Shown: piece after piece, positions 1-36,305 of the stretch
Layout: each line of letters opens with the position of its first letter
Position numbering within the stretch: position 1 is the first letter of the stretch
Assembly (NCBI GenBank): GCA_036397035.1
Contig: DASWJS010000014.1
Span: forward strand, 36,014 to 100,013
Length of the DNA: 64,000 nucleotides
Source: Actinomycetota bacterium
GTDB taxonomy: Bacteria > Actinomycetota > AC-67
Direction of reading: 5' to 3'
Notes under the pieces: model-generated
Databases searched by the model: none
The model's input: only the letters and a program-made list of their open reading frames with translations
What the model was told of the DNA's origin: nothing
Program-made: the position numbers and the translations under genes

Positions 1-736
1 AGGTGTCGGGCGCCCAGAAGTGGAACGGGACCGCGGAGACCTTGAACGCGAAGCCGGCGACGATCAGCAAGATGCTCGCCGTGACGAGCGGCGCGTCGCC
101 CTGGGCGCGCAGCGCCTCGGCGATCGCGCTGAGGTTGGTCGACCCGGTGACGCCGTAGATCAGCGACATGCCGAAGAGCATCACGGCCGAGGACAGCACG
201 CCGAACAGGAAGAACTTCACCGCGGCTTCGTTCGAGCGGTCGTCGGCCTTCTTGAAGCCGGCCATCACGAACCCGGGGATGCTCACCAGCTCCAGCGCCA
301 CGAACAGCGCCAGCATGTCGCGCGCGCTTGCCATCGCGACCATGCCCAGCAGACTCGACAGCAGCAGGAAGTAGAACTCGCCCTGGATGCGCTCGGCTCG
401 TTCGGCGAGGTAGGTGACTGAGATCAGGATCGTCAGGCCGCCGACCGCGAGGAACAGGAACTTGAACAGCATCGCGTAGCCGTCGAGGACGAACATGCCG
501 CCGAAGGTCTCGCGCCCGCCGGCGGGCCGGTCCCCCACCAGCGTCGCCAGCGCGATCGCCGCGGCCCCGATTCCCAGCGCCGAGACCACCGCGTTGAGCG
601 GCTTCGCGCGCGAGGGAAGGAACAGGTCGACGACGAGCACGACGACCGCCGCGACGGTCAGCGCGATCTCCGGCGCGATCGCGTGAAGGTCGACGTTCAG
701 CAGCGCGTCGGTGGAGACCTGGGCGAGGACGCTCAT
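1..736 (-). CDS. nuoN: NADH-quinone oxidoreductase subunit N (5' part; gene runs off window start)
   Basis: Hand translation of the minus strand from ATG at 736-734 gives MSVLAQVSTDALLNVDLHAIAPEIALTVAAVVVLVVDLFLP...AGFAFKVSAVPFHFWAPDT. Polytopic membrane protein with the NuoN/ND2-type PFHFW-PD motif. Starts 1 nt after the nuoM stop. Not in the ORF track because it has no in-window stop. Confidence 0.75.
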   Translation of the reverse strand, partial: MSVLAQVSTDALLNVDLHAIAPEIALTVAAVVVLVVDLFLPSRAKPLNAVVSALGIGAAAIALATLVGDRPAGGRETFGGMFVLDGYAMLFKFLFLAVGGLTILISVTYLAERAERIQGEFYFLLLSSLLGMVAMASARDMLALFVALELVSIPGFVMAGFKKADDRSNEAAVKFFLFGVLSSAVMLFGMSLIYGVTGSTNLSAIAEALRAQGDAPLVTASILLIVAGFAFKVSAVPFHFWAPDT

Positions 737-737
737 C

Positions 738-2264
738 TCAGAACAAGCTCGCGAGGGCCGTCACGGCGTCGTTGGTCATGTCCAGCACCGCTCGCGGGAA
801 GACGCCGAGCGCGACGATGCCAACGAGCAGCGGCGCCCACGCGACCCACTCCATCGTCCGCACGTCGTCGATCGAGGCGTCGGCCGCCCACTTCTCGCGC
901 AACTGGCCGAGCCCGAGCCGCCGAATCAGCCAGAGCATGTAGCCCGCGGTCAGGATCGTGCCGACGCCGCCGAGCACCATGTACGAGCGGTAGAGCCCCT
1001 GGTGGAGCCCGTCGGCCGGGCGGAAGGCGGCGAGCAGCGCCAGCACCTCGCCCCAGAAGCCCGCCAGGCCGGGCAGGCCGAGCGAAGCGATCCCGGCGAA
1101 GACGAACACCGCTCCCATCCGCGGGATCTTCGTCAGCAGCCCCGGCCCGATGTCGTCGATGACGCGCGTGTGGTAGCGCTCGTACATCGACCCCGCGAGG
1201 AAGAACAGCATCCCGGTAATGAGGCCGTGGGCCACCATGCCGAAGACGGCCGCGTTGATCCCGACGTCGGTCAGCGTCGATATGCCGAGCATCACGAAGC
1301 CCATGTGACCCACCGAGGAGAACGCGATCAGCCGCTTGATGTCCTTCTGCGCCAGGCAGCACAGCGCGCCGTACAAGATCGAGATCACCGCCAGCGCGCC
1401 GATGTAGGGGGCCCACGTGCGCGCCGCGTCGGGCAGCAGGGGCAGCGCGATGCGGATGAAGGCGTAGGTCCCCATCTTCAGCAGGACGCCGGCAAGCAGG
1501 ACCGAGCCGACCGTCGGCGCGTCGCCGTGCGCGTCGGGGAGCCACGTGTGGAACGGCCACATCGGCACCTTGATCGCGAAGCCGAGGAACAGGCCCAGGA
1601 ACACCAGGTGCTGGAACCCGACCCCGCCGAAGGTCTGGCCCTGCAGCAGGATCATGTCGAAGGTGTGGTTGCCGTCGGGCCCGACCGAGCGGAAGTACAT
1701 CGCCAGAAAGCCCAGCAGCATGAACACCGACCCGAACAGCGTGTAGAGGAAGAACTTGATCGCGGAGTATTCCTTCCGCTCGCTCCCCCAGATGGAGATG
1801 ATGAAGTACATCGGGACGAGCACCATCTCCCAGAAGACGAAGAACAGCACCAGATCCAGCGAGGTGAACGTGCCGGCCATGCCGGTCTCCAGCAGCAGGA
1901 CCAGCGCGAAGAAGCCCTTGAGGCGCCCTTCGGGCTTCGGGGGAACGCGCAACGTGTAGAGCACGCACAGGAAGGTCAGTAGCGCCGTCAGGACGACCAG
2001 CGGCAGCGAGATGCCGTCGATGCCCATGTGGTAGCGGGCGAAGATCGTCTCGATCCAGCTCGTGTCGACCTCGAACTGGAACGCGCCCGTGCGATCGAAG
2101 TCGAACCGCGCGAGCGCGACCAGCGAGAACACGAAGGCCGCGCCGGACGCGACCACCGCGAGCGCCTTCATCGCGACCTCGTTGCCGCGCGGCACCAGCG
2201 CGATCAGCACGCCTCCCACCAGCGGCGTGAACACCACCAGCGAGAGCAACCAGTCGTCGAACAT
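738..2264 (-). CDS. nuoM: NADH-quinone oxidoreductase subunit M
   Basis: 508-aa polytopic protein with ND4/NuoM hallmarks (WLPDAH..APT, MYERYHTRVIDDIGPGL). Lies between nuoL and nuoN. Confidence 0.85.
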   Translation of the reverse strand: MFDDWLLSLVVFTPLVGGVLIALVPRGNEVAMKALAVVASGAAFVFSLVALARFDFDRTGAFQFEVDTSWIETIFARYHMGIDGISLPLVVLTALLTFLCVLYTLRVPPKPEGRLKGFFALVLLLETGMAGTFTSLDLVLFFVFWEMVLVPMYFIISIWGSERKEYSAIKFFLYTLFGSVFMLLGFLAMYFRSVGPDGNHTFDMILLQGQTFGGVGFQHLVFLGLFLGFAIKVPMWPFHTWLPDAHGDAPTVGSVLLAGVLLKMGTYAFIRIALPLLPDAARTWAPYIGALAVISILYGALCCLAQKDIKRLIAFSSVGHMGFVMLGISTLTDVGINAAVFGMVAHGLITGMLFFLAGSMYERYHTRVIDDIGPGLLTKIPRMGAVFVFAGIASLGLPGLAGFWGEVLALLAAFRPADGLHQGLYRSYMVLGGVGTILTAGYMLWLIRRLGLGQLREKWAADASIDDVRTMEWVAWAPLLVGIVALGVFPRAVLDMTNDAVTALASLF

Positions 2265-2273
2265 GCTTTCCCC

Positions 2274-4310
2274 CTACGCGAATCGAATGAAGAGCAGCGC
2301 CAAGACCGCGGTGCCGCCGAACAGCACGGCCGCGTATCGCTGGACATTGCCCGATTGGACGTACCGGAGCAGGCCGCTGGACGTGCGCGCGCCGATGCCC
2401 ACGCCGTTCACCGCTCCGTCGATGACCTTCTGATCGACGACCGAATAGAGCCCGCGCGCGAACCAGGTCGCGGTCGCCGCGGCGCCGTTGACCGCGCCGT
2501 CGAACACGTTCTGGTTGAGCCAGTACATCGCGCCCGAGACCGTGTCCCGGACCGGCAGCACGATCGCGCGCATGTAGAACTCGTCCAGGTAGTACTTGTT
2601 GACGAGCAGCGTGTGGAACCAGCCGAGCCTCGTGACCGGATCGACCGCAGGCGCGGGCGCGTAGAGCCGGCGCCCGAACCAGATCCCGCCGACCGCGACC
2701 GCCAGCGACACGACGATCAGCACGATGTCGGCGCCCGGCACCTCGGTGACGCCCCCGACGGCGGCCCATGCGCCGAACCCGCTCTGGTTGCCCGGCAGCC
2801 CCGCGAAGCCGGCGACCGCGCCCAGGATCGCGAGCACCGTCAGCGGGATCGTCATGGTCTTGGGCGATTCGTGCGGGTGACCGTGCCCGCGGTACTCGCC
2901 CTCGAAGGTCAGGTGGAAGGCGCGCGACATGTAGAACGCGGTCAGGAACGCCGTGAGGATCCCCGAGCCGTACACGATGTAGCCGACGACGTCGGTGCCC
3001 GGCGAGTGCGCCGCGGTGCCCGCGCCCACGTGGAACGCCTCGGTCAGGATCTCGTCCTTCGACCAGAAGCCGGCCAGCGGGAAGATGCCGGCGAGCGCGA
3101 GCGACCCCACGCCGAACGTCCAGTAGGTGGTCGGCATGAACCTTCGCAGGCCCCCCATGTCGCTCATGTTGTTCGAGTGCACCGCATGGATGACCGATCC
3201 GGCTCCCAGGAACAGCAGCGCCTTGAACCACGCGTGCGTGAACAGGTGGAAGATCCCCGCGTTGCCCGCGCCGACCCCGAGCGCCGCCGACATGTACGCG
3301 AGCTGGCTGATCGTCGAATACGCGAGCACCTTCTTGATGTCGTCCTGGACCATCGCCAGCAGCGCCGCCATCAGCATCGTGAACGCGCCGATCAGCGCGA
3401 CGACGTTCAGCGCCGCCTCCGATCCCTCGAAGATCGGGAACGCGCGCGCGACCAGGAAGATCCCGGCGGTCACCATCGTCGCCGCGTGGATGAGCGCGCT
3501 GACCGGCGTCGGGCCCGCCATCGCGTCGGGCAGCCAGACGTGGAGCGGGAACTGCGCGCTCTTACCGATCGCGCCGCCGAACAGCAGGATCGCGCCCGCG
3601 GTCAGCGTCACCGTCCCGATCTCGCCGCCCTCGACCAGGTGCAGGATCTCGCCGATGTTGAACGTGCCGGCCGCGGCGAAGATCACGAAGATGCCGATGA
3701 GGAACGGGATGTCGCCGGTCTTGGTGACCACGAACGCCTTGATGGCCGCGTTGGCGTTCTCGCGCTCTTCCCAGTAGTGCCCGATCAGCAGGTACGAGCA
3801 GACACCGACCAGCTCCCAGCCGATCAAGAGCTGCAGCAGGTTGTTGCTGATCACCAGCAACAGCATCGAGCCGGTGAACAGGTTGAGCGCGGTGAAGTAC
3901 CACGTGAAGCGCGGCTCGCCCTTCATGTACCCGCTCGAATAGAGCTGCACCATCGCCGAGACGCCCGTCACGACCACGAACATCACCGCGGTCAGCCCGT
4001 TGACGAGCATCCCCAGCTCCAGGCTGAGCCCGCCGCCGAACGGGAACCAGTCCAGCGCGCGCTCGACCGTGGGCCCGCCGCCGCCGACGTAGTCGGCCAG
4101 CACCCACAGCGCGAGCACGAGGTCGGCGAGCATGAGCGTGATGCCGATCTCCGCGCCGCCTTTCGGCAGCCGCTTGCCGAACCACCAGATCAGCAGCAGC
4201 GACACGAACGGGATGGCCGGGATCAGCCAGGCGTGCTCGGTCGCCCAGTTGCCCGCGCCGGCGGCCAGCTCCAAGGCCGCCTCTTCCGCGGCGAGCAGCG
4301 CGCCTACCAC
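2274..4310 (-). CDS. nuoL: NADH-quinone oxidoreductase subunit L
   Basis: C-terminal ~650 aa of the 955-aa ORF is a typical NuoL/ND5 (WLPDAMAGPTPVSALIHAATMVTAG, long C-terminal amphipathic region). Probable GTG start at 4310 overlapping the nuoK stop; a TTG at about 4268 is an alternative. Confidence 0.8.
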   Translation of the reverse strand: MVGALLAAEEAALELAAGAGNWATEHAWLIPAIPFVSLLLIWWFGKRLPKGGAEIGITLMLADLVLALWVLADYVGGGGPTVERALDWFPFGGGLSLELGMLVNGLTAVMFVVVTGVSAMVQLYSSGYMKGEPRFTWYFTALNLFTGSMLLLVISNNLLQLLIGWELVGVCSYLLIGHYWEERENANAAIKAFVVTKTGDIPFLIGIFVIFAAAGTFNIGEILHLVEGGEIGTVTLTAGAILLFGGAIGKSAQFPLHVWLPDAMAGPTPVSALIHAATMVTAGIFLVARAFPIFEGSEAALNVVALIGAFTMLMAALLAMVQDDIKKVLAYSTISQLAYMSAALGVGAGNAGIFHLFTHAWFKALLFLGAGSVIHAVHSNNMSDMGGLRRFMPTTYWTFGVGSLALAGIFPLAGFWSKDEILTEAFHVGAGTAAHSPGTDVVGYIVYGSGILTAFLTAFYMSRAFHLTFEGEYRGHGHPHESPKTMTIPLTVLAILGAVAGFAGLPGNQSGFGAWAAVGGVTEVPGADIVLIVVSLAVAVGGIWFGRRLYAPAPAVDPVTRLGWFHTLLVNKYYLDEFYMRAIVLPVRDTVSGAMYWLNQNVFDGAVNGAAATATWFARGLYSVVDQKVIDGAVNGVGIGARTSSGLLRYVQSGNVQRYAAVLFGGTAVLALLFIRFA

Positions 4311-4609
4311 TTCAGCAGATCCACTTCGTCGACGTTGATGCTCTTGCGGTTGCGGAAGATCAGCAGCACGATCGCGAGCCCGACGCCGACCTCGGCGGCG
4401 GCGATCGTGATGACGAACAGGCTGAAGATCTGCCCGATGGCGACCTGGTCCTGGAGGTAGGCGTTGAACGCGACGAGGTTGATGTTGACCGAGTTGAGCA
4501 TCAGCTCGATCGACATCAGGACAAGGACCGCGTTCTTGCGCGCCAGCACACCGTAGACCCCGACGCTGAACAGGAACGCGCCGAGGGTGAGGATCCACGC
4601 GAGGCTCAT
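4304..4609 (-). CDS. nuoK: NADH-quinone oxidoreductase subunit K
   Basis: 101-aa protein with 3 TM helices and the NuoK signature (LMLNSVNINLVAF...AAEVGVGLAIVL). Confidence 0.9.
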   Translation of the reverse strand: MSLAWILTLGAFLFSVGVYGVLARKNAVLVLMSIELMLNSVNINLVAFNAYLQDQVAIGQIFSLFVITIAAAEVGVGLAIVLLIFRNRKSINVDEVDLLKW

Positions 4610-4612
4610 CGT

Positions 4613-5104
4613 CTAATCCCTCTTCGCCAGGACGATCGCGCCCACCAGGGCCGCGAGCAGCAGGACGGACACCAGCTCGAAGGGAAGGATGTAGCGCTCG
4701 AACAGCGACTGGCCGATGTCGTTGGTGCGAACGACCTGGTCGAGCGGGATCTTCTCGTCGCCGAAGGCGTCCCAGATCAGGTAGGTGAAGACCCCGAAGA
4801 TCGCGCCGGACGCCAGCAGCGCGATCCCCCGCTGCTGGTTGTCCAGCGTCGTCCGCCCGATCGGCGCCGCGGTCAGCATGAGCCCGAATAGCAGCAGGAC
4901 GATGATCGCGCCGACGTAGATCAGGATCTGCGTCCAGCCGACGAACTCGGCCCCCATGATCAGGAACAGCACGCCGATGCCGGCGAGCGCCACGACCAGG
5001 TACAGCGCGGCTCGCACGACGTTCTTGCTGACGACGACGGCCACCGCGGCGAGCGCGGTCAGCAGCGAGAAGCCGAGCGCGACGATCGCGGGCCAGGACG
5101 TCAT
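4613..5104 (-). CDS. nuoJ: NADH-quinone oxidoreductase subunit J
   Basis: 163-aa C-terminal part of the 379-aa ORF ([21 protein letters not shown]...). ATG at 5104-5102 overlaps the nuoI stop (ATGA). The upstream part of the track ORF is frame artefact. Confidence 0.85.
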
Positions 5105-5682
5105 TCGGCACCGCCCCCGTAGTCCTTGGCCTGCGCGGCAAGCTCCTTCGGATCCTCCGCGCCGTCGTCCAGCGCCGGGGGCGGCGGGACGAGCTTCATC
5201 CACTCGCCGAGCGTCGGCATCTCGTGGGTCAGCTCGGTGATGTCGTCGGTCGAGTACTCGAAGTGCGGCGACCAGAACAGCGCGTCGAACGGGCAGACCT
5301 CGACGCAGATCCCGCAGTACATGCACAGCGCGTAGTCGATCGCGAAGCGGTCGAGCATGTTCCGCGTCCGCGCGCGAGCGCCCGGCGTCTTCGGCGGCAC
5401 CTTCTCCTTGTGGGAGTCGATGTAGATGCACCAGTCGGGGCACTCGCGCGAGCACAGCATGCAGACCGTGCAGTTCTCTTCCTTCAGCGCGATGATCCCG
5501 CGTGTGCGCGGCGGCAGGTCCGGCTTCACGTGCGGGTACTGCTGCGTCGTCGCGGGCGTGAGCATCGTGCGCAGCGTGACGCTCAGCCCCTTGGCGAGGC
5601 CGTAGACGGCGCCGATCCCCTTCTTCGAGGCGATCGTGCGCTCCAGGGCGCGCAGCTTCTCGAGGCGCTCGGCGCTGATCAT
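5101..5682 (-). CDS. nuoI: NADH-quinone oxidoreductase subunit I (2x[4Fe-4S])
   Basis: Two ferredoxin motifs ([12 protein letters not shown] and [12 protein letters not shown]). Has a ~45-aa acidic/Pro-rich C-terminal extension. Confidence 0.9.
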
Positions 5683-6690
5683 CTAGAAGGCCACCTTGAA
5701 GATCATCGTGAGCAGGATGTTCACCAAAGCGATCGGGATCAGGTACTTCCACGCCATCTTCTGGAGCTGGTCCTCGCGCAGGCGCGGGTAGGTCGCGCGC
5801 AGCCAGATGATGAAGAAGGCGAGCAGACCGACCTTGCCGAGCGTCCAGATCGGCGCCGGGATGAACGGGATCAGCAGCCCGTGCCAGCCGCCGAGGTAGA
5901 GCACCGTCGCCACCGCCGACAGCGCGACGATCCCCGCGTACTCGGCCAGCAGGAACATCGCGAAGCGCACGCCGGTGTACTCGGTCATGTGACCGAAAAT
6001 GATCTCGGAGTCCGCGATCGGCATGTCGAAGGGAGGGCGCGACAGCTCGGCGAGGCTCGCCAGCAAGAAGAGCGCGAAGCCGGCGAACTGCGGGATGACG
6101 AACCAGTAGCTGTCCTGCGCCTCGACGATCCCGACGAGTGAGATCGTGCCCGCCTGCATCGCGACGGCGCTCGCGGCGAGCACCAGCGGCAGCTCGTATG
6201 CGATGAGCTGCGCGGCGCCGCGGATCGCGCCGATGAGCGCGAACTTGTTGGCGCTCGACCAGCCCGCCATCAGCATGCCGATGACGCCGATCGCGCTGAT
6301 CGCCAGCACGAAGAACAGCCCGAGGTCGAAGTTCTCGCCCCAGATGCCGTTGGCGGGGTTGTCTCCGGGTCCGGGCCCGAAGGGCAGCACCAAGAACACC
6401 AGGATCGTGGGAACCAAGGCCACGATGGGTGCGACGGAGAAGACCTTGCGGTCGGCCGCCGCCGGGATGATGTCCTCCTTCTGGATGAACTTCACGCCGT
6501 CGGCGATGAGCTGCGCCCAGCCGTGAAACTTGCCGGCCTCCATCGGCCCGAGCCGCGACTGCATGTGCGCGAGCCCCTTGTGCTCGGCATAGCCCACGAC
6601 CATCGGCGCGGTCAGGAAGACGAGCAGCACCGCGACCACCTTGAAGACGAGCACGATCCAGGGGTTGGCGAACAGCTCGTTGAAGATCAC
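5683..6690 (-). CDS. nuoH: NADH-quinone oxidoreductase subunit H
   Basis: 335-aa polytopic protein with NuoH/ND1 motifs (MQSRLGPMEAG, AGWSSANKFALIGAIRGAAQLIAYE). Only a 22-nt gap to nuoD, with no room for nuoEFG. Confidence 0.9.
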   Translation of the reverse strand: MIFNELFANPWIVLVFKVVAVLLVFLTAPMVVGYAEHKGLAHMQSRLGPMEAGKFHGWAQLIADGVKFIQKEDIIPAAADRKVFSVAPIVALVPTILVFLVLPFGPGPGDNPANGIWGENFDLGLFFVLAISAIGVIGMLMAGWSSANKFALIGAIRGAAQLIAYELPLVLAASAVAMQAGTISLVGIVEAQDSYWFVIPQFAGFALFLLASLAELSRPPFDMPIADSEIIFGHMTEYTGVRFAMFLLAEYAGIVALSAVATVLYLGGWHGLLIPFIPAPIWTLGKVGLLAFFIIWLRATYPRLREDQLQKMAWKYLIPIALVNILLTMIFKVAF

Positions 6691-6712
6691 CGGCGCGCCC
6701 CCCTGCTCGTCC

Positions 6713-7906
6713 TCATCGATCGACGTCCCCGACGACGAAGAACACGCTGCCGAGCACCGCGATCAGGTCCGGCAGCAGGATCCCCTCCAGCAGGTACGGG
6801 ATCATCGAGACGTTGTGGAAGGACGGCGTGCGCATCTTGAGCCGCCACGGCTCCTTCTCACCACGCGAGACGAGGTAGTAACCCAGCTCGCCCAGCGAGT
6901 TCTCGACGCGCGTGTAGGTCCAGCCCTCCGGCGGCTGGATGTACTTCGGCATCTTGCCCGGCAGGATCGCGCCGGCCGGCATCTTGTCGTGCACCTGCTC
7001 GATGATCTTCAGCGACTCCTCGATGCGGCGGTACAGCACGACGAAGCGGTCGTAGCAATCGCCGTTCTCGCCAACCGGCACGTCGAAGTCGACCTCGTCG
7101 TATTTCAGGTAGGGCTCGGTCTTGCGGGCGTCCTCGGCCACCCCGGATGCCTGCAGGATCGGGCCGCTGACGCCGTAAGACTTGGCGACCTCGCCGGGCA
7201 GCACGCCGATGCCGACCGTGCGCTTGCGAAAGATCTCGTTGCCGAGCAGCAACCCGTCGTAGTCCAGCAGCCGGTGCCGGATCTTGCGGACCAGCGCGGC
7301 CGAGTGCTTCAGGAACCCCGCCGGCAGGTCCTCCTTCAGCCCGCCGACGCGGTTGTAGGTGAAGTGCATGCGCGCGCCGGTCGCGGCCTCCAGCAGGTTC
7401 TGGATGTCCTCGCGTTCGCGGAACGCCAGGAACATCGGCGTCATCGCGCCCAGCTCCAGCCCGAAGGAGCCGAGGAACATCAGGTGGTTCAGCACGCGGT
7501 TCCACTCGGCCATCAGCATCCGGATCCACTGCGCGCGCTCCGGCACCTCCATCTCCATCAGCTTCTCGACCGCCAGCACGACGCCAAGCTCGTTACCGAA
7601 GGCGCTCAGCCAGTCGTGGCGGTTGGACAGCGCGATGATCTGCCGGTAGTCGCGCACCTCCGAGAGCTTGTCGAAGGCGCGGTGCATGTAGCCGATGACC
7701 GGCGTGGCCGTGGCGATGCGCTCGCCGTCGAGCGTGAGCACGACGCGAAGCACGCCGTGGGTCGAGGGGTGCTGCGGCCCGATCGACAGCGTCATCTCTT
7801 GCGTGGCGAACTCCGCCTCGGCGCCGGCGATCACGACCTGGACGCCCTCGCCGGGGCCGCCGGGGATCGTTCCCGCCTGCCGCAGCTCGGTGGGCCCCGC
7901 CATCAT
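6713..7906 (-). CDS. nuoD: NADH-quinone oxidoreductase subunit D (49 kDa)
   Basis: 398 aa from MMAGPTEL.. with [18 protein letters not shown] and C-terminal RTPSFHNV motifs. ATG at 7906 is adjacent to the nuoC stop. The upstream 132 codons of the track ORF are frame artefact. Confidence 0.85.
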   Translation of the reverse strand: MMAGPTELRQAGTIPGGPGEGVQVVIAGAEAEFATQEMTLSIGPQHPSTHGVLRVVLTLDGERIATATPVIGYMHRAFDKLSEVRDYRQIIALSNRHDWLSAFGNELGVVLAVEKLMEMEVPERAQWIRMLMAEWNRVLNHLMFLGSFGLELGAMTPMFLAFREREDIQNLLEAATGARMHFTYNRVGGLKEDLPAGFLKHSAALVRKIRHRLLDYDGLLLGNEIFRKRTVGIGVLPGEVAKSYGVSGPILQASGVAEDARKTEPYLKYDEVDFDVPVGENGDCYDRFVVLYRRIEESLKIIEQVHDKMPAGAILPGKMPKYIQPPEGWTYTRVENSLGELGYYLVSRGEKEPWRLKMRTPSFHNVSMIPYLLEGILLPDLIAVLGSVFFVVGDVDR

Positions 7907-8406
7907 TGTGACGGTGACACCTCCTCCGGCTCCTTCTCGCCCGGCCACTCCTTGGCCTCGCGCGTCATCAGCTTGAAGTCCTTGCGCAGCGGATGGCCCT
8001 CGAACTCGACCGGCAGCAGCAGCTTCACCAGGTTCGGGTGCCCGGCGAAGTCGATGCCGAACAGCTCGTTCGTCTCGCGCTCGCACCAGTTGGCGCCGAG
8101 CCACACCTCCGACAGCGTCGGCAGCGACGGGTTCTCGCGCCCGAGCACCGTCTTGACGTTGACGTGGTGCTGGCGGCGGACCGAGTAGACGTGGAGCACG
8201 ACCTCGAAGCCCTCGGCCTCCAGGTCGACCGCGGTCAGGAACGTGCAGAAGTCGAAGTGGCAGTGCCCGCAGTCGCGCAGGTGCGTCGCGACTTCGACCC
8301 ACCGGGCGGGCGCTACCCAGACCGAGACCTCGCCGTGCGCGACCTCGCTGCGCTCGACGGCGCCGGTGGCGTCCGTGAGGTGCTGGACGATCTCGTCGGG
8401 GCTCAT
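7903..8406 (-). CDS. nuoC: NADH-quinone oxidoreductase subunit C (30 kDa)
   Basis: 167 aa from [10 protein letters not shown].. containing ERETNELFGIDFAGHPNL. ATG overlaps the nuoB stop. Confidence 0.85.
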   Translation of the reverse strand: MSPDEIVQHLTDATGAVERSEVAHGEVSVWVAPARWVEVATHLRDCGHCHFDFCTFLTAVDLEAEGFEVVLHVYSVRRQHHVNVKTVLGRENPSLPTLSEVWLGANWCERETNELFGIDFAGHPNLVKLLLPVEFEGHPLRKDFKLMTREAKEWPGEKEPEEVSPSQ

Positions 8407-8951
8407 CACTCGTCGCGGATCGCGGTCTGGTGGATGGGTCCGCCGCCGACCACGATCGGCTCGGTCGCGCGACGCCGCGCGAAGTGGTCCTTCAAGCTCT
8501 CCTGGCCGATGCGCTCCTGCAGCTTGAGGATCCCTTCGAGCAGCGCCTCGGGCCGCGGCGGGCACCCCGGCACGTAGACGTCGACCGGCACGATCTGGTC
8601 CACGCCCTTGGTCACCGAGTAGGAGTCCCAGAAGGGCCCGCCGCAGTTCGAGCACGACCCGAAGGAGATCACGTACTTCGGCTCGGGGATCTGCTCGTAG
8701 ACGCGCTTGAGCGCGGGCGCCATCTTGTCAGTCAGCGTCCCGGCGACGACGAGCATGTCGGCCTGGCGCGGCCCGTGCGCGACCGGGATCACGCCCAGGC
8801 GGATGAAGTCGTGCCGGCTGGTGGAGGCGGCGATCAGCTCGATCGCGCAGCACGCGAGCCCGAAGTTCATCACCCAGAGGCTGTACTTGCGGCCCCAGTT
8901 GAGGATGAACTTGGCGGGCTTCGGGAAGTTGACTTGCTCGACGAGCCCCAT
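8406..8951 (-). CDS. nuoB: NADH-quinone oxidoreductase subunit B (20 kDa, N2 cluster)
   Basis: 181 aa with [19 protein letters not shown] and VPGCPP cysteine motifs. Confidence 0.9.
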
Positions 8952-8972
8952 CAGTCGGTCACACCCACTCCC

Positions 8973-9344
8973 TCACACCCACTCCAGGACCTTCTTCTTC
9001 CATGCGTAGAGCAGGCCGACAGCCAGGATGACCACGAACACGATCATCTCCACCAGGACCAGCCCCGCGTTGGGGAACCGCTCGAAGATCGTGGCGAAGG
9101 GGAAGAGGAACACCGCCTCGACGTCGAAGATCACGAACAGGAAGGCGTAGATGTAGTAGCGGATCTGGGTCTGGCTCCAGCCCTCGCCGACGGGGTCCAC
9201 GCCGCACTCGTAGGTCGTGTACTTCTCGGGCCGGGCGAAGGTCGGCCGCATGATCCGGTTGACCAGAAACCCGACGGCGACAAAGCCCGCGCCGGCCACC
9301 GCGAGCACGCCCAGAGTCCCGTATTGCCAGAAGTAATCCGTCAC
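8973..9344 (-). CDS. nuoA: NADH-quinone oxidoreductase subunit A
   Basis: 123 aa from GTG at 9344 (VTDYFWQYGTLGVLAV...YECGVDP...YIYAFLFVIFDVEAVFLFP). A GGAG Shine-Dalgarno lies 6 nt upstream. The N-terminal 32 codons of the track ORF are probably not translated. Confidence 0.8.
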   Translation of the reverse strand: MTDYFWQYGTLGVLAVAGAGFVAVGFLVNRIMRPTFARPEKYTTYECGVDPVGEGWSQTQIRYYIYAFLFVIFDVEAVFLFPFATIFERFPNAGLVLVEMIVFVVILAVGLLYAWKKKVLEWV

Positions 9345-22230: not shown

Positions 22231-23693
22231 CTACCCCGTGAAGACGGCCGCCGTGCGCGCGAGGTCCATCAGCGCCTGCGGGTAGACCCCGAGCGCGAGT
22301 GTCGCCAGACCGGTCACGGCCAGCGCGACGCCGGCGGGCATCCCGACCGTCACCGGCTCCATCGAGGGCTCGGGCTCCTGCATCCACATCGCCACGATCA
22401 GGCGCAAGTAGAAGAACGCGGCGATGACGCTCGCGGCGACGCCGGCGAGGACGAGCCAGGTCTCCCCCGCCTCCACCGCGGCCTTGAACACGAAGAACTT
22501 GGCCATGAACCCGGCCGTCGGCGGCAGCCCGGCCATCGAGACAAGGAACAGCGTCATCGCGCCGGCGACGACGGGCGAGCCGCGCCCGAGCCCCGCCCAC
22601 GCGCCGACGTCGAGCCGCTCGCTCCCGCGCGCGAACGTCGCGGCGACGAGCGCGAAGGCGCCGATCGTCATCAGCGCGTAGACGAGGAGATAGAACAGCG
22701 AGCCGGCGAGCCCCTGTCGGTCCGCGGCCACGACGCCGATCAGCACGAAGCCCGCGTGGGCGATCGAGGAGTAGGCGAGCAGCCGCTTCACGTCCGTCTG
22801 CACGATCGCGACGACCGACCCGAGCAGCATCGTCACGATCGCGATCAGCCACAGGGCCGGCCGCCAGTCGAATTGCAGCGAGCCGAACGAGACGAGGAAC
22901 ACGCGCAGCAGCGCCGCGAACGCGGCCGCCTTGGTCGCCGCCGCCATGAACCCGGTCACCGTCGTCGGCGCTCCCTGGTAGACATCCGGCGTCCACATGT
23001 GGAACGGCACCGCGCCGACCTTGAACGCGAAGCCGACCGCGACCAGGGCCACGGCCGGCCAGAGCAGGTCCAGGTCGGCCGTCCCGCCGGCGACGGCGTC
23101 GGCGATCGCGCTGATGCTCGTCTCGCCGGTCGCCCCGTAGGCGAGCGCGATGCCGTAGAGCAGGATCGCGCTGGAGAACGCGCCGAGCAGGAAGTACTTC
23201 ATCGAGGCTTCCTGCGCGCCGCCGTCGGCTCGCGCCAGCCCGACCAGCACGTAGAGCGACAGCGAGAGCACCTCGAGCGCGATGAAGAGCAGGATCAGGT
23301 TCGCGGCCGAGGCCAGCAGCACCATGCCGGCGGTCGCGAGCAGCAGCAGCGGATAGAACTCGAAGCGGTGAATGCGCCGGGCGCTCAGGTAGTCGAAGGA
23401 CGCCAGGACCGTCAGGCCGGCCGCGAGCAGCAGCACGAGGTTGGTGAACAGCGCCACGCCGTCCACCGCCACCATCCCCTGCATGCCGACGATCTCGCGG
23501 TCGGCGCGCGCGAGGTCGAACGTGAGGAACCCGGCGCCGCCGAGCGCCGCCAGCGTCAGGATCGCGAAGCGCTCGCGCCGGATGCGTCGCGCGAACGCTC
23601 CCCACAGCAGGGTCAGCGCCGCCGCGCCCGCGAGCACGAGCACCGGACCGATGCTGCGCCAGACGATCTCCGGGGTGGCCTGGATGGGCACGC

Positions 23694-23697
<4 letters not shown>
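22231..23697 (-). CDS. nuoN: NADH-quinone oxidoreductase subunit N
   Basis: 488 aa from MSVPIQATPE... (FKVGAVPFHMWTPDVYQGAPT). ATG overlaps the nuoM stop (ATGA). The upstream part of the 926-aa track ORF is frame artefact. Confidence 0.9.
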
Positions 23698-27169
<3,472 letters not shown>

Positions 27170-27173
<4 letters not shown>

Positions 27174-27510
27174 CCCTTCAGCGCGCTCACGTCGTCAACG
27201 GACGCAGCGTCGACCGCCGTCGCGCCGGCGGGGACGCGGCCTTTCCGGCGGAAGATAGCGACGATGATGCCGAGCCCCACCACGACCTCCGCCGCGGCGA
27301 CGACCATCACGAAGAAGGCGAGCACCTGGCCGTCCAGCCCGCCGTGGATCTTCGCGAAGGTCACCAGGGTGAGGTTGACCGCGTTCAGCATCAGCTCGAT
27401 GCCCATGAAGATCCGCAGCGCGTTCTTGCGCAGCAGGACCGCCGCGGTTCCCGTCGCGAACAGGATCGCCGCGAGGCCGAGGAAGTGCGAGGGCTGGACC
27501 TGGAAGAAGC

Positions 27511-27514
<4 letters not shown>
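27170..27514 (-). CDS. nuoK: NADH-quinone oxidoreductase subunit K
   Basis: 114 aa with 3 TM helices ([16 protein letters not shown]...[15 protein letters not shown]). Confidence 0.85.
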
Positions 27515-28059
<545 letters not shown>

Positions 28060-28077
28060 GCTCCCCCCTTTCGCTTC

Positions 28078-28629
28078 TCAGTCGTTGCGAGCCGCCGCCT
28101 CGGCCGACGTCAGCGGCGGCGTGACCTGCGGTCCGCCGTAGTAGCTCAGACCGCGCGCCCGCACGTCCTCGTCGGTGTGCGGCAGCGCCGTCACGTCCGC
28201 CGGCAGCGGCGCGAGCAGCATCTCCTTGACGTAGACGAGGTCCTCGCGCGAGGCCTCCGACAGCTCGTACTCCGTGCTCATCGTCAGCGCCCGCGTCGGG
28301 CAGGCCTCGATGCAGAGTCCGCAGAAGATACAGCGCGCGTAGGAGATCTGATAGTCGATCGCGTAGCGCTCGCCCGGCGAGTAGCGGGCGTCCGGCGCGT
28401 TGTCGGCGCCCTGGACGAAGATCGCATCCGCGGGACAGGCCCAGGCGCACAGCTCACACCCGATGCACTTCTCAAGCCCGTCCTCGTACCGGTTCAGGAC
28501 GTGGCGGCCGTGGTAGCGCGGCGACGGGTCCTTGCGCTGCTCGGGATACTGCGCGGTGACCGGACGCCGAAGCATGTGGCGAGCCGTCACGGCGAGCCCC
28601 TTCGCGATCTCCAGCAGCGCCACGCTCAT
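28078..28629 (-). CDS. nuoI: NADH-quinone oxidoreductase subunit I
   Basis: 183 aa from [11 protein letters not shown].. with [12 protein letters not shown] and [16 protein letters not shown] overlap with the nuoH stop. Confidence 0.85.
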
Positions 28630-29798
28630 CCCCTCCGCAGCGGGTTCAGGACCCGCGGGTCGAGCGTGCCGAAGCGGCGGCGCGTGATCACCGTCATCCA
28701 GCCCAGGAACGCGACGCCGAAGGCGATCGCGGTCGCGGCGCCGAGCGTCGCGCGGTCCACCTCCTGCGGCAGCACGACGAGCGCCGAGGTGACCATCATC
28801 CACGCGAGCGAGAACGGCAGCAGCACCTTCCAGCCGAAGCGCATCAGCTTGTCGTAGCGGATGCGCGGGAGCGTCGCGCGCACCCACATGAACACGAAGA
28901 TCATCGCGCCGAGCTTGCCCAGGAACCACACGACCGGCCACAGCGGCCGCAGGAACGGCAGGACGGGGCCGCGCCATCCGCCCAGGAACAGCGTCGTGAC
29001 GATGGCGGACGTCGCGATCACGTGCAGGTACTCGGCGAGGAAGAACATGGCGAACTTGATGCCGGAGTACTCGGTGTGGAAGCCGGCGACCAGCTCGGTC
29101 TCGGCTTCCGGCAGGTCGAAGGGCGCACGGTTCGTCTCGGCGAGCCCGGCGACGAAGAAGATGACGAACGCCGGCAACTGCGACAGGACGAACCAGTGCG
29201 GGACGATCCCGCCGTAGGCGCCCGCTTGCGCATCGACGATCCCGCGCGTGGACAGCGTGCCGGCCTGGATCACGACCGCGACCACCGCCAGGCCCATCGC
29301 CAGCTCGTAGGAGATCATCTGCGCGCTCGACCGCACCCCGCCGAGCAGCGGGTAGACGCTGCCGCTCGACCAGCCGGCGAGGACGACGCCGTAGACCATC
29401 AGGCTGCCCATCGCCAGAAAGAACAAGATGCCGACGTTCAGGTCGGCGAGCTGGAGTCGGATCACGCGCTCGCCGATCGTCCAGGTGTCGCCGAAGGGCA
29501 CGACGGCGAACGAGGCGAACGCGGGGACGAGAGCCGCTAGCGGCGCGATGAAGTACACGCCGCGCTCGGCCGCGAGCGGGTTGATGTCCTCCTTGAAGAA
29601 CAGCTTCACGCCGTCGGCGAGCGCCTGGAGCATGCCCATCGGGCCCACGCGGTTCGGGCCGATGCGCTGCTGCATGATCGCGACGACGCGACGCTCGGCC
29701 CAGATGGTGAACATCACGCTGACGAGCAGGAAGCCGAACACCACGACGACCTTGATGGCGGCGATCAGGATCTCCCAGCCGTCGAAGGGTTGCGTCAT
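28626..29798 (-). CDS. nuoH: NADH-quinone oxidoreductase subunit H
   Basis: 390 aa from MTQPFDGW... ([39 protein letters not shown]). ATG at 29798 overlaps the nuoG stop. Confidence 0.9.
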
Positions 29799-32114
29799 GC
29801 GCCGCTCTCCGGCTCGATCTCGACGACCGGGAACGGGTCGTCGAGCGACAGTAGCGCGCGCACGTCCATGCCCGCCTGGTTCGACGGGACGAGCACGCAG
29901 CCGTCCGCGATCCCCTCGTCGACGACGGCGGGCCCGGCCACCGCGCCCAGGCGCGCGCGCGCGCGGATCCGCGCTCCGTCCGACACGCCGCGCGCGCGCG
30001 CCGACGCCGGACTGAGGCCGATCCGAGGCCCGGGCGCGGTGTGCGCCAGCAGGTCCGACCCGGCCATGAGCGTGCCCTGGTCGATCAGGTCGTCCACGAC
30101 CACCAAGCGCGTGTCCTTGCCCGGGGCGCCCGCCGCCCACGGGTCCAGCGCGACCGCGGGCCCGCGCTCGGCGCGCAGCGCCGCCATCTCGCGCGCCAGC
30201 GTTCGCTCGTCCGGGAAGCCGCGCCCGAACGCTTCGGCGACGTGGCGCAGGATCGTGGCGGTCGTGTCGGCGAGACCGGGCGGCGGGATCGAGCCGCGCA
30301 GGCTCGCGCGCGTTCCCTCCCACGTCGTCACCGTCCCGTCCCGCTCGAACGAGGAGGCCGCCGGCAGGACCACGTCGGCCATCCGCGAGGAAGCGGTGAG
30401 GAACATGTCCAGCGCGACGACGAACCCGGCGCCGTCGATCGCGCGCGAGCCGAGCGACGCGTCCGGCACGGCGGTCACCGGGTCGGCGCCTGCCAGGAAG
30501 AGCACCTCCGGCGACGCGGCCGCCATCGATCGCAGACCGCCGCCGGCGCCGGACGGGAGCGGCCCCCACACGGCCTCGGCGGCGGCCACAGCGGCGGCCA
30601 CAGCGTCCGCCCGGACGCCGCCGGGCAGCAGCGCCGGGTGCAGGCCCGCTTCGATCGCGCCGCGGACGCCGGAGGCGCGCGGGATCCAGCCGAACCGCCC
30701 CTGAAGCTCAATCGCCAGGTTCCACGCGGCCGTCAACGCGCCGGGGGAAGCGGCAAGCCGCTCGCCGGTGAGCACGACCGCCGCGCCGGCCGCGCCGGAC
30801 AGCTCGGCCGCGAGCGCGGACAGCACCGCCGCCTCGCCGCCGGGCGCGCAGGGCAGCCAGGCGCCGGCGAGCCGCGTTCGCCGCGGACCGACCTCGATGA
30901 TGTGCGTGCCGCGTTCGCGGGCGGCCTTCCGCGCCCGCAGGTAGACGATCGGCGCGTCCTGGTGCAGGTCGATGCCCGCCACGATGATCGCGCGCGCGGC
31001 GTCGACGTCCGCGTAGGTCGCCGTCTCGGTCCGAGGGAGCGCTGCGAGGACGGGGGTCTCCTCCTCGCTCGGCGCAGGCCGGAGCGTGTCGACCTCGTTC
31101 GTCCCGAGCACCGTGCGCGCGAAGCGCGACAGCGCGAACGCGTCCTCGTCCGCCAGGTGCCGTCCGGCGAGCACGGCGGTGCGTCCCCCGTTGCCGTTCG
31201 CGGCGCGCAAGCGCTCCGCGATCGCGTCGAGCGCCTCCGTCCAGCTCACCGCGACGAAGTCGTCGCCCTTGCGAACGAGCGGCTCGGTCACGCGATCCGC
31301 GTGAGCCACGAACCCGGTCCCCCAGCGGCCCTTGTCGCAGATCCACGCGTCGTTCACCGCGCGATCCTCGCGCGCCAGCACCCGGACCAGCTCGCCCCGC
31401 CGCGTCTGCACGTCGATCGCGCAGCCGCTCGCGCAGCGCGTGCAGGTGCTCGACGTCGTGACCACGTCGAAGGGCCGCGCGCGGAAGCGATAGTCGGTCG
31501 CGGTCAGCGCGCCGACCGGGCAGATCTGCACGACGTTGCCGCTGAAGATGCTCTCGTAGGGCTCGTCTTCGCTGATCGAGACCTGCTCCAGCGCGCCGCG
31601 CTCGAACAGCTCGATGAACGGGTCGCCGGAGATCTGGTCGGCGAACCGCGTGCAGCGCGCGCACAGCACGCAGCGCTCGCGGTCGAGCTTGATCTGCTCG
31701 GAGATCGGAATCGGCTTGGTGAACCGGCGCTTGGCGTCCACGTAGCGCGAGCCGCCCGGGCCGTACGCGAGCGCTTGGTCCTGCAGCGGGCACTCGCCGC
31801 CCTTGTCGCACATCGGGCAGTCGAGCGGGTGGTTGATCAGCAGCAGCTCCAGCACGCCGCGCTGTCCGTCCTGCGCGATCTCGCTCGTCGCCTGGGTCTT
31901 GACCACCATGCCCTCGGTGCACGTCGTCGTGCAGGACGTGAGCGGCTTGCGCTGGCCCTCGACCTCGACCAGGCACTGCCGGCACGCGCCGAGCGGGTCG
32001 AGCATCGGGTGGTCGCAGAAGCGCGGCACGTAGATGCCGAGCCGCTCGGCCGCTCGTATGACGAGCGTCCCCTCGGGGACCGTGATCTCGCGCCCGTCGA
32101 TCGTGAGCGTGACC

Positions 32115-32125
<11 letters not shown>
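29795..32125 (-). CDS. nuoG: NADH-quinone oxidoreductase subunit G (75 kDa)
   Basis: 776 aa. N-terminal 2Fe-2S and 4Fe-4S Cys motifs ([42 protein letters not shown]) followed by a molybdopterin-like domain. Confidence 0.9.
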
Positions 32126-33391
<1,266 letters not shown>

Positions 33392-33395
<4 letters not shown>

Positions 33396-33993
33396 CGCTC
33401 GTCCCCTTCCACGGCGCCGGCCATCTCGCGGTTGATCGCGCCGAAGTCCAGCGGCGCCGACCCGCGCGCGGCCGGGGGCGGATCCCCGCCCGCCGCCAGG
33501 ACCTCGACGAGCGCGACCGCGTCGTCCACGCTCATCCGCTCGTAGTTGTCGTAGTTGACGCTGAAAACCGGCGCGGCGTCGCACGCACAGAGGCACTCGA
33601 CCTCCTCGACGCTCACGACGTCGCCGTCCAGCCCGCGAACGCGCTCGAACAAGTCGCCGCCGCCGGCCAGGGCGCACGACGGCTGCGTACACACGCTGAC
33701 GAGCCACCGCCCCTGCTTGGTCCGCTTGAACATCGTGTAGAAGGTCGCGACCGCCTGCACCTCCGCGCGCGTCAGTCCGAGCAGCGCGGCGATCGCGTCC
33801 ATCGCCTGCACCGAGACGAACCCGTGCTCGCCCTGGGCCAGGTAGAGCAACGGCAGCAGCGCGCTGCGCGCCCGGCCCTCGGGGTATCGCCCGACGATCG
33901 CGCGCGCGCGCTGGTGGAACGCCTCGGACAGCGGCGCGACCTCATCGGCGGCGTGCGGGCCGCGGCGCTCGGTGTCGAACACGCCGGCGCTCA
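33392..33993 (-). CDS. nuoE: NADH-quinone oxidoreductase subunit E (24 kDa)
   Basis: ~200 aa from GTG overlapping the nuoD stop. Thioredoxin-like 2Fe-2S motifs (CTQPSCALAGG ... ECLCACDAAP). The N-terminal part of the 494-aa track ORF is artefact. Confidence 0.8.
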
Positions 33994-35271
33994 CCGGTCG
34001 ACGCCTCCCATCACCGGGTCGAGGCTCGCGACGGTGGCGATGACGTCGGCGAGCAGCCCGCCGCGCACCATCACCGGCATCGCCTGGAGGTTCACGAAGC
34101 TCGGGTCGCGCGTGTGCACGCGCCACGGCTTGTTCGTCCCCGTCGACACGACGTGGTAGCCCAGCTCGCCCCGCGGGGACTCGACGGGCACGTACACCTC
34201 GCCGGCGGGCACCTTGAACCCCTCGGTGACGAGCTTGAAGTGGTGGATGAGCGCCTCCATCGACTCGCCCATGATCGTGCGGATGTAGCCGGGGTCGTTG
34301 CCGAGGCCGTCGTGCCCGAGCGTGAGCCGCGCCGGCCAGGCGATCTTCGGGTCGTCCACCATGACCGGGCCGCCCGGCAGCCCGTTCGCGACCTGCTCGA
34401 CGATCTTCAGCGACTCGCGCATCTCGGCGATGCGCACGCGGTAGCGCGCGAGGCAGTCGGCCGCGTCGTCGGTCGGCACGTCGAAGTCGTACTGCTCGTA
34501 GCCGCAATACGGCGCCTGCTTGCGCAAGTCGTGCGGCACGCCCGCCGCGCGCAGCAGCGGTCCCGTCACGCCCAAGCCGAGCGCCGTCGACGCGTCCAGG
34601 ATCCCGATGCCCCGGTTGCGCTCGATCCAGGTCGGGTTGTCGGTGAGCAGCGTCTCGTACTCGTCGAGGCGCGCGGGGAACAGCTCGACGAACTCCTTGA
34701 TCTTCTCGATGCTGCCGTCGGGCAGGTCCGTCGACAGGCCGCCGGGCCGGACGTAGGCGTGGTTCATCCGCAAGCCGGTGACGTGCTCGAAGATGTCCAG
34801 GATCAGCTCGCGCTCGCGGAAGCCGTAGAGCATCACGCTGAGCGCGCCCAGCTCCATCCCGCTCGTCGCCAGCCACACCAGGTGCGAGGAGATCCGGTTC
34901 AGCTCGCCGAGCATCACCCGGATCGCCTGCGCGCGCGCCGGCGCCTCGATCCCGAGCAGCCGCTCGACCGCGAGGCAGTAGCCCAGCTCGTTGTGGAACG
35001 GCGCGAGGTAGTCCATGCGCGTGACGAAGGTGACCCCCTGCGTCCAGTTTCGGACCTCGGCGTTCTTCTCAATCCCGGTGTGCAGGTAGCCGACGACCGA
35101 ATGCGCGTTCACGACCGTCTCGCCGTCCAGCTCGAGGACGAGCCGCAGCACCCCGTGTGTGGAGGGGTGCTGCGGCCCCATGTTCACGATCAGCGTGTCG
35201 TCGTCGGTGCGCGCGTGGAGCGTCTCCCAGTCGCGCCCGCCGAGGAAGACCTCGTTCTCGGCGACGCTCAC
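33991..35271 (-). CDS. nuoD: NADH-quinone oxidoreductase subunit D
   Basis: ~426 aa from GTG at 35271 (GTGA overlap with the nuoC stop). [29 protein letters not shown]. Confidence 0.9.
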
Positions 35272-35822
35272 GAGAGCCTCCCCGGGTAGCCCGAGGTCGT
35301 GGAGGGCTGGCCGCGCCGGTCCGGCGGCGGCACGAACGCGCCGCGATAGGCGACGTCGGTCCCGCCGAGCGGGTAGTCCTTGCGCTGCGGATGGCCGTCC
35401 CACTCGTCGGGCATGAAGATGCGCCGAAGGTCCGGGTGGCCGTCGAAGCGGATCCCGAAGAAGTCGAACATCTCGCGTTCGAGCGCGTCGGCGCCCGCCC
35501 ACACGCCGGTCAGCGACGGGCAATGCTCGTCGCCCTGCGGGATGAAGACGCGGACGCGGACGCGCGCCGGGTGGCGCACCGACGCCAGGACCGCGGCGCA
35601 CAGGAAGCGGCGCTCCGGCGGCTCCACGCCCAGGTAGTCCACCGCGCTCCAGTCGGCGAGCAGCTCGAAGGGCCCCTCGTCCCGCAGATAGGCAACGACG
35701 TCGCGCAGGCCGGTGCGCGCGACCTCGATCGAGGTCTCGCCGAACGCCTCCTCGGGCTCGGAGACGACTTCGGGAAAACGTTCACGAACTCCGGCGAGGA
35801 CGTCCAGCAGCGCGGCCGGCAT
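35268..35822 (-). CDS. nuoC: NADH-quinone oxidoreductase subunit C
   Basis: 184 aa with [21 protein letters not shown]. Confidence 0.85.
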
Positions 35823-35825
35823 GGG

Positions 35826-36305
<480 letters not shown>

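Follow-up and report, generated by a model that had tools for sequence, protein, structure and literature searches.

Complex I-type enzymes are encoded twice in the stretch of DNA analysed here (the window), which comprises 64,000 nucleotides (nt) of an uncultured Actinomycetota bacterium (GenBank assembly GCA_036397035.1, contig DASWJS010000014.1, positions 36,014 to 100,013). An operon of 11 genes, called here nuo2, occupies positions 2-9344 in the order nuoA-B-C-D-H-I-J-K-L-M-N, and a canonical nuoA-N operon is found at 22231-36743, both on the minus strand. The nuo2 operon encodes complete sets of subunits for the quinone-reducing (Q) and proton-pumping (P) modules and none for the NADH-oxidising (N) module formed by NuoE, NuoF and NuoG. 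We propose that it probably specifies an autonomous 11-subunit complex I-type enzyme and represents the actinobacterial 'nuo2' system, known from Streptomyces, in an unsplit form.

Gene content of the nuo2 and canonical nuo operons

The G+C content of the window is 65-76% and long spurious open reading frames (ORFs) occur on both strands; analysis of the reading frames by their G+C content at third codon positions (GC3) left one coding frame per region. Gene calls were made by this frame analysis and identities were assigned with Pfam and NCBIfam. The nuo2 genes gave Pfam E-values of 1e-27 to 1e-104 and GC3 values of 0.87-0.96, and are listed below in the order of transcription.

8973..9344, minus strand: nuoA2, first gene of the operon, 123 amino acids (aa); PF00507 (E=5e-33), best NCBIfam model NF005839
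8406..8951, minus strand: nuoB2, 181 aa, carrier of cluster N2; PF01058, and NF005012 at 221 bits, above cut-off
7903..8406, minus strand: nuoC2, 167 aa; PF00329 (E=1e-39)
6713..7903, minus strand: nuoD2, 396 aa, short-type NuoD with a remodelled quinone site; PF00346
6691..6712, minus strand: nuoD2-nuoH2 spacer, 22 nt, read directly, at the position of nuoEFG in canonical operons
5683..6690, minus strand: nuoH2, 335 aa; PF00146 (E=5e-104), and NF004741 at 328 bits, above cut-off
5101..5682, minus strand: nuoI2, 193 aa, 2x[4Fe-4S] protein with CxxCxxCxxxCP motifs at residues 71-82 and 120-131
4613..5104, minus strand: nuoJ2, 163 aa; PF00499 (E=6e-37)
4304..4609, minus strand: nuoK2, 101 aa; PF00420, and NF004322 at 131.7 bits, above cut-off
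2274..4310, minus strand: nuoL2, 678 aa, antiporter-like, with the C-terminal lateral-helix region; PF00361 and PF00662, and NF005141 at 637 bits, above cut-off
738..2264, minus strand: nuoM2, 508 aa; TIGR01972 at 572 bits, above cut-off
2..736, minus strand: nuoN2, N-terminal 245 of 499 codons, cut by the left edge of the window; PF00361

At every junction other than nuoD2-nuoH2 the genes overlap or lie 1-21 nt apart (the nuoI2 stop codon overlaps the nuoJ2 start in an ATGA), and nuo2 is therefore a single tightly packed operon. The nuoD2-nuoH2 spacer, GGACGAGCAGGGGGGCGCGCCG, is placed between the nuoD2 stop codon TGA (6715-6713) and the GTG start codon of nuoH2 (6690); it is purine-rich, resembles a ribosome-binding site and is too short for a gene. 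No nuoE, nuoF or nuoG was detected inside the operon, where the GC3 frame analysis shows no further coding ORF, and a scan for promoters and terminators 5' of nuoA2 revealed no sites. An earlier note on this DNA had described a nuoABCDHIJKLMN set at 1-9344. Its gene order and content were confirmed, with the limits refined to 2-9344 and nuoN2 found to be interrupted by the window and not by the genome. The 22 nt that it gave between nuoD and nuoH proved exact on reading the sequence and leave no room for nuoEFG, and the clean junction, which bears no trace of decay, agrees with its statement that the N-module is absent rather than pseudogenised. The full-length nuoN2 (499 aa) is present at 14947-16446 of L004, which is the same contig in the public assembly ENA ERZ27256807 (83.7 kb, with an exact match at those ends of the shared region that were compared), and is identical across the shared part. 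The 123-aa nuoA2 call also recurs in L004.

The residues expected of a working enzyme were retained. The iron-sulfur (Fe-S) chain is intact, with two clusters in NuoI2 and N2 in NuoB2, whose cysteines (a tandem Cys and PGCPP) align with those that bind N2 in complex I structures. In the three antiporter-like subunits the charged residues are kept as well: the Glu motif of transmembrane helix (TM) 5 and the Lys motifs of TM7 and TM12 were read in the translations of NuoL2 (WELVG, GKSAQFPLHVWLPDAM and HAWFKALLF) and NuoM2 (FWEMV, AIKVPMWPFHTWLPDAH, LLKMG and YER), NuoN2 being checked by family match and length alone. NuoB2, NuoH2, NuoK2, NuoL2 and NuoM2 exceed curated NCBIfam cut-offs, and NuoI2 scored 88.8 bits against TIGR01971, under the cut-off of 113.

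The comparator operon and its N-module genes were identified by Pfam and NCBIfam, as follows, in agreement with the canonical nuoA-N assignment of the earlier note.

22231..36743, minus strand: canonical nuoA-N, containing nuoE, nuoF and nuoG
33392-33982, minus strand: canonical nuoE, 2Fe-2S_thioredx
32115-33395, minus strand: canonical nuoF, Complex1_51K and NADH_4Fe-4S
29795-32125, minus strand: canonical nuoG, Fer2_4 and Molybdopterin

The two operons share eleven subunit families, strand and neighbourhood. Identity between paralogues is 32-56% (NuoI 32%, NuoA and NuoC 36%, NuoB 56%; NuoD2 and NuoH2 are 40-43% identical to the canonical copies) and the best NCBIfam equivalogs differ between the two sets; NF005839, for instance, is not the equivalog that fits the canonical NuoA best. 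These two observations ruled out that the nuo2 set arose by a recent duplication and a subsequent deletion. Judged from this divergence, the two sets represent two complex I lineages that were paired long ago, in line with the two old paralogous operons on one strand that the earlier note had recognised.

A single scan of genome contigs gave three close relatives. The nuoD2-nuoH2 adjacency recurs in L001, L002, L003, L004 and L006, whose samples and assemblies differ, and the proteins of the relatives sharing this junction show 66-87% identity with their counterparts in the window. In the relative L003, nuoL-M-N is followed by a polyprenyl synthase gene and this by nuoA2-B2-C2-D2-H2-I2, and in the window about 11.9 kb separate the polyprenyl synthase gene from nuoA2. 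All ten complete nuo2 genes gave ratios of nonsynonymous to synonymous substitution rates (dN/dS) of 0.10-0.57 against two relatives, values that are overestimates as the extreme GC3 (0.95) compresses dS. By the measure of these substitution rates the nuo2 genes are under purifying selection, and the nuo2 set is evidently real, functional and old.

The quinone site of NuoD2 and the C-terminal region of NuoI2

The best PDB match of NuoD2 is Nqo4 of Thermus thermophilus (343 bits), and the residues of NuoD and NuoH are numbered as in T. thermophilus. NuoD2 keeps His38, whereas Met85 is replaced by His and Tyr87 by Trp (motif NRHDWL), and Asp401 is replaced by Phe in the C-terminal VFFVVGDVDR. 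Compared to T. thermophilus Nqo8, NuoH2 keeps Glu35 and carries His instead of Arg36 and Glu instead of Arg50. The NiFe-ligand cysteines are absent from both the N- and C-terminal regions of NuoD2, the latter with the VFFVVGDVDR sequence. NuoD2 also lacks a segment of about 40 aa found in the canonical NuoD (NuoD1) and in T. thermophilus Nqo4; the Bacillus-type NuoD and FpoD models, likewise without this segment, align to NuoD2 in a single stretch. The missing segment was considered as a marker of N-module docking and dropped, as NdhH of NDH-1, an enzyme without N-module, nevertheless has it.

A set of 1.84 billion 50%-cluster representatives was searched with NuoD2 and the best 150 matches were examined and aligned with MAFFT. 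NRHDW was invariant in 35 of these 150 proteins, the other matches carrying the canonical DRxDY. Every full-length NRHDW member has a hydrophobic residue in place of Asp401, whereas the non-NRHDW relatives in the representative set keep both Tyr87 and Asp401. In a neighbour-joining tree, computed without bootstrap, the NRHDW proteins form one clade and NuoD1 falls far off among canonical sequences. A profile search with the clade recovered NRHDW together with a C-terminus of the FFVVGD(I/V)DK type in all of the 117 top matches, which include isolates of Kitasatospora, Embleya, Yinghuangia, Cryptosporangium and Angustibacter. The named members of the clade are Actinomycetes, and the cultivable carriers (Kitasatospora, Embleya and Cryptosporangium) make questions about nuo2 testable.

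The gene for NuoD2 is located inside the operon in the window, in L001-L004 and in L006. By contrast, NRHDW-type nuoD2 is an orphan gene in L007, a metagenome-assembled genome (MAG), in L008, a MAG of the Dermatophilaceae, and in L009, Cryptosporangium arvum. The orphan genes lie near fol and ftsH genes (folE, folP, folB, folK and ftsH; L008 8624-11143, L009 8728-11146 and L007 10001-11179) and, in the unrelated genomes of the Dermatophilaceae MAG and C. arvum, divergently adjoin a cytochrome P450 gene.

Trp at position 87 confers inhibitor resistance on canonical enzymes, according to the summary given in PMC4758237. The strict conservation of Trp87 and His85 over a large clade indicates that the NuoD2 pocket is a selected alternative and not a product of decay. 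The altered NuoD2/NuoH2 pocket predicts that quinone handling and inhibitor sensitivity would differ from those of the canonical enzyme. Degli Esposti reported the same NuoD substitutions in 'piericidin-producing Streptomyces' and interpreted them as self-resistance (PMC4758237). Their clade-wide distribution suggests that the sequence in question may have been the NuoD2 paralogue. The occurrence of Tyr87 to Trp, Met85 to His and loss of Asp401 throughout the NuoD2-type proteins of many Actinomycetes thus bears on the self-resistance reading.

NuoI2 belongs to the most divergent paralogue pair (32% identity). The earlier note had ascribed to it an acidic, Pro-rich tail that the canonical NuoI would lack, and had connected this tail with donor docking. 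The acidic Pro-rich stretch is real, has a net charge of -5 and is conserved in relatives, but the canonical NuoI does not lack a tail, since 72 residues follow its second Cys motif against 62 in NuoI2; NuoI2 is the longer protein mainly through an N-terminal region 16 residues longer. Among the nearest 120 homologues of NuoI2, at least 95 extend the acidic stretch by a long Ala/Pro linker, which leads to a basic, conserved module of about 40 aa at the C-terminus (consensus PPQIDQETYxRxIAAGKSEREARALAKKAWILKRRK), for which no Pfam family and no PDB relative were found. Most homologues measure 275-310 aa (P0002-P0120; L006 10001-10876; L002 about 11351-12230) compared to 193 aa in the window, where NuoI2 ends before the linker, and the linker and basic module are cleanly lost (at 5101-5104). 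The same 193-aa NuoI2 is found on four contigs, which makes the deletion a genuine lineage-specific one, and a 90%-identical relative retains the module. As seen from this alignment, the NuoI2 tail of the window is the acidic stump of a family-typical tail whose linker and basic module were deleted in the lineage. The stump is an unpromising candidate for the docking of acidic ferredoxins, and the docking argument built on the tail is weak. Literature assigning a Lys-rich FpoI tail a role in ferredoxin docking, a possible analogy, was searched for and not found. The basic module, conserved in most relatives and unannotated, offers a concrete handle on donor docking.

The proposed enzyme and rival explanations

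The gene content of nuo2 is that of complex I-like enzymes with 11 subunits that do not receive electrons from NADH through an N-module of their own, the class to which the earlier note had assigned it. Such 11-subunit complexes occur in actinobacteria and no universal partner has been found for them (PMC3144371), and partial nuo operons have been taken to use other donors (PMC4453560). In the enzyme that we propose, electrons would enter at NuoI2 from a soluble low-potential carrier, and not from NADH by way of a dedicated N-module. By analogy, reduced ferredoxin would be the most likely carrier, because NDH-1 is fed by ferredoxin and the Firmicutes enzyme has been proposed to be so too (PMC11238625). 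The electrons would then pass through clusters N6a, N6b and N2 to menaquinone in the remodelled pocket (His38 kept, His85 and Trp87 present, Asp401 missing, and Arg36His and Arg50Glu in NuoH), and the redox energy would drive proton pumping via NuoH/A/J/K and NuoN/M/L. Which donor feeds the 11-subunit complex I of bacteria has long been asked (PMC3144371, PMC11238625), and the nuo2 locus gives no answer.

Several observations weigh against this proposal. No donor or adaptor gene is linked to nuo2 here or in relatives: Pfam scans of about 30 other genes of the window and of the L004 and L006 flanks detected no linked donor gene, and the only small 2x[4Fe-4S] protein among the scanned genes (54492-54839) sits within a cytochrome bc-type operon. 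No feature of the sequence singles out ferredoxin. This genome lacks the basic NuoI2 module, a plausible catcher of an acidic donor. When canonical complex I is mutated to carry Trp in place of Tyr87, most of the decyl-quinone activity is lost, as summarised in PMC4758237, and therefore normal quinone reduction by a Trp87 NuoD2 should not, by analogy, be taken for granted. Finally, one nuoEFG set is located 13 kb away, so that its subunits could be borrowed.

This last possibility is the main rival. The 11 subunits would form an alternative Q/P chassis that docks the single NuoEFG of the neighbouring operon, and the product would be another NADH:menaquinone oxidoreductase whose quinone pocket differs, for example by being insensitive to inhibitors of the piericidin or rotenone type. 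Only one nuoEFG set is present nearby, on the same strand, and in L003 just the polyprenyl synthase gene lies between the two operons. One nuoEFG serving both copies of the other genes has been considered by Spero et al. (PMC4453560), and the changes at Tyr87, Met85 and Asp401 coincide with inhibitor-resistance sites (PMC4758237). We nevertheless regard a shared N-module as rather unlikely: the low conservation of NuoI (32%) and NuoC (36%), the least conserved paralogue pairs together with NuoA, argues against a common docking partner, the NuoI2 family has an N-terminal extension and a tail of its own, and 11-subunit enzymes of other phyla function without any NuoEFG (PMC3144371, PMC11238625). 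A donor other than ferredoxin can also be envisaged. Cofactor F420 is widespread in Actinomycetota, and an unlinked FpoF/FqoF-like subunit might dock and feed the complex from reduced F420, making it an F420H2:menaquinone oxidoreductase. That the same chassis can use F420H2 is known from Fpo/Fqo (PMC3144371), and the luciferase-like oxidoreductase gene at 48236-49261 is a candidate F420-dependent one. However, no FpoF-like gene lies in or adjoins the operon here or in L002, L004 and L006, the NCBIfam Fpo models score far under their cut-offs (FpoD 326 vs 600) and FpoF-containing complexes are confined to Euryarchaeota (PMC3144371), which leaves this donor with little probability.

The other explanations deny nuo2 a present function or its integrity. 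A decaying or silent duplicate might be suspected because NuoI2 lost its linker and basic module in the lineage and because a catalytic Tyr was replaced in NuoD2. Yet none of the 11 frames is interrupted and their GC3 is 0.87-0.96, every Fe-S ligand and pump residue is retained, dN/dS stays below 1 in each gene tested, the Trp/His/no-Asp pattern is invariant over a large clade and hence selected rather than drifting, and the Streptomyces nuo2 operon is transcribed (PMC3765725), so that we consider decay very improbable. That nuoEFG fell out of a second canonical operon during assembly, the loss of about 4.5 kb that the earlier note had named as refuting its reading, is conceivable for a window taken from a metagenome assembly; its probability is close to nil. 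The same junction is found on several contigs of different samples and in relatives whose proteins are 66-87% identical, and its recurrence in five independent assemblies therefore excludes such an artefact, while flanking NuoD2 and NuoH2 just 40-43% identical to their canonical counterparts make repeat collapse impossible.

A broader interpretation of the autonomous enzyme is more doubtful. The NRHDW clade (His85 and Trp87, no Asp401, Arg36His and Arg50Glu in NuoH) might be a distinct actinobacterial complex I lineage with a quinone chemistry unlike that of every studied complex I, be it a different proton donor, a natural insensitivity to inhibitors of the piericidin or rotenone type, or an enzyme running mainly in reverse. 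It might be fed by a tethered NuoI2 donor-capture device, the Ala/Pro linker and basic module that most relatives possess and that was lost here, and its unsplit 11-gene operon might be ancestral to the Streptomyces nuo2. We put this forward tentatively, as a rather unlikely possibility.

Genomic surroundings and comparison with known systems

Upstream of nuo2 are HicAB and cell-envelope genes, and downstream is an M48 peptidase gene. The region 9345-21257 holds toxin-antitoxin pairs and genes for cell-envelope glycopolymers; its contents are HicA/HicB, DUF4160/DUF2442, ORFs of unknown function (G+C 0.65-0.66) and teichoic-acid-like genes (GT2, two CDP-alcohol phosphatidyltransferases, Fe-ADH, a nucleotidyltransferase and an ABC-2 exporter). 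Because L003 has just the polyprenyl synthase gene (L003 4123-5259) between nuoN and nuoA2, the stretch between the two nuo operons of the window looks like later insertions. The M48 (HtpX-like) peptidase gene is found 50-80 nt 3' of nuoN2 (L004 16527-17396, L002 18212-19087 and L006 16738-17703); it is conserved at this place in three lineages with 66-75% identity and may be co-transcribed with the nuo2 operon.

Elsewhere in the window, an unusual cytochrome bc-type operon (54059-58166, plus strand) encodes an unknown 135-aa protein followed by the 2x[4Fe-4S] ferredoxin-like protein (54492-54839), a split cytochrome b (b6-like 54851-55636 and subunit IV-like 55637-56488), a Rieske protein and a dihaem cytochrome c. 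It differs from the usual actinobacterial layout, which is qcrCAB and in which cytochrome b is not split. The region 40381-46403, upstream of the canonical nuoA, carries genes for a geranylgeranyl-reductase-like flavoprotein, two sulfotransferases (one with a double domain) and a fused ATP-sulfurylase/APS (adenosine 5'-phosphosulfate)-kinase, a set that makes 3'-phosphoadenosine 5'-phosphosulfate (PAPS) and transfers sulfate, beside respiratory and prenyl genes; it brings to mind the synthesis of sulfomenaquinone in mycobacteria. A gene at 38187-40247 (minus strand), placed between the canonical nuoA and the geranylgeranyl-reductase-like gene, encodes a 686-aa protein matching Beta_propel (PF09826, E=1e-135).

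The novelty that the earlier note had implied does not hold, since complex I without an N-module has already been published for Actinobacteria, and so has its presence alongside nuoA-N in Streptomyces (PMC3144371, PMC3765725, PMC8388888). Streptomyces has nuoA-N together with nuoA2, B2, D2 and H2-N2, which are expressed as an operon, nuoD2 lying apart from the nuoA2-B2-H2...N2 operon (PMC3765725, PMC8388888). As in the window, this nuo2 belongs to the same phylum, coexists with a canonical 14-gene operon and has no nuoEFG. NRHDW-type NuoD occurs in the Streptomycetaceae Kitasatospora, Embleya and Yinghuangia, Streptomyces itself being compared via published descriptions. By contrast with the orphan nuoD2 described in the literature for Streptomyces, the window has nuoC2 and nuoD2 in the operon and 11 contiguous genes. 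The in-operon and detached positions of nuoD2 are a difference of gene arrangement and not of protein family. A literature search for 'SCO3392' and a look-up of the NuoD2 locus of Kitasatospora mediocidica both returned no entries.

The likeness to Fpo and NDH-1 drawn in the earlier note stands as a functional analogy only; the Fpo and Ndh models fall far under their cut-offs and the nearest relatives are actinobacterial NuoD2-type proteins. Cyanobacterial and plastid NDH-1 has the same 11-core-subunit chassis without NuoEFG, and the entry of electrons from ferredoxin at NdhI provides the functional analogy. The NDH-1 models, however, score far under cut-off for nuo2 (NdhH 333 vs 583, ndhI 59 vs 302, the NdhA-type model also below), NdhH has the segment of about 40 aa absent from NuoD2, so that it aligns in two stretches, the quinone differs, and no accessory genes of the NDH-1 kind (NdhL-NdhS/V, NdhO type) are linked to nuo2. 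Archaeal Fpo/Fqo has a homologous core and FpoD is also of the short NuoD type, with a single-stretch alignment. Its acceptor is methanophenazine, whereas nuo2 of the window is without linked FpoF or FpoO; no FpoF was detected among the genes scanned in the window or flanks, and the Fpo 'exception' models reached about half of their cut-off or less for nuo2, except FpoK (113 vs 145). An Fpo identity was ruled out by the absence of FpoF from the scanned genes and by the sub-threshold Fpo models. A group 4 [NiFe] hydrogenase (Ech/Mbh/Hyc) was likewise ruled out, since the NiFe cysteines are absent and a full complex I membrane arm is present.

The 11-gene enzyme of Desulfitobacterium and other Firmicutes has the same gene order as nuo2 and the same absence of the N-module. 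It belongs to a menaquinone organism, and ferredoxin has been proposed as its donor (PMC11238625). The best NCBIfam models, NF008974 (366 aa) for NuoD2 and NF005839 for NuoA2, place this NuoD in the short type, but the proteins of the window score under the equivalog cut-offs (NuoD 442 vs 522). The D. hafniense enzyme is sensitive to rotenone (PMC11238625), whereas the Trp87 pocket of NuoD2 may not be. Compared to the canonical complex I of the same genome, nuo2 lacks NuoEFG, and its NuoD lacks the Tyr87, Asp401 and extra segment that the canonical protein has. Taken together, a compact 11-gene actinobacterial nuo2 near a canonical operon, in a deep-branching lineage, helps to reconstruct the origin of the split Streptomyces arrangement, and the present analysis adds to what was known the contiguous 11-gene arrangement, the clade-wide quinone-site substitutions and the NuoI2 module that is present in relatives and lost here.

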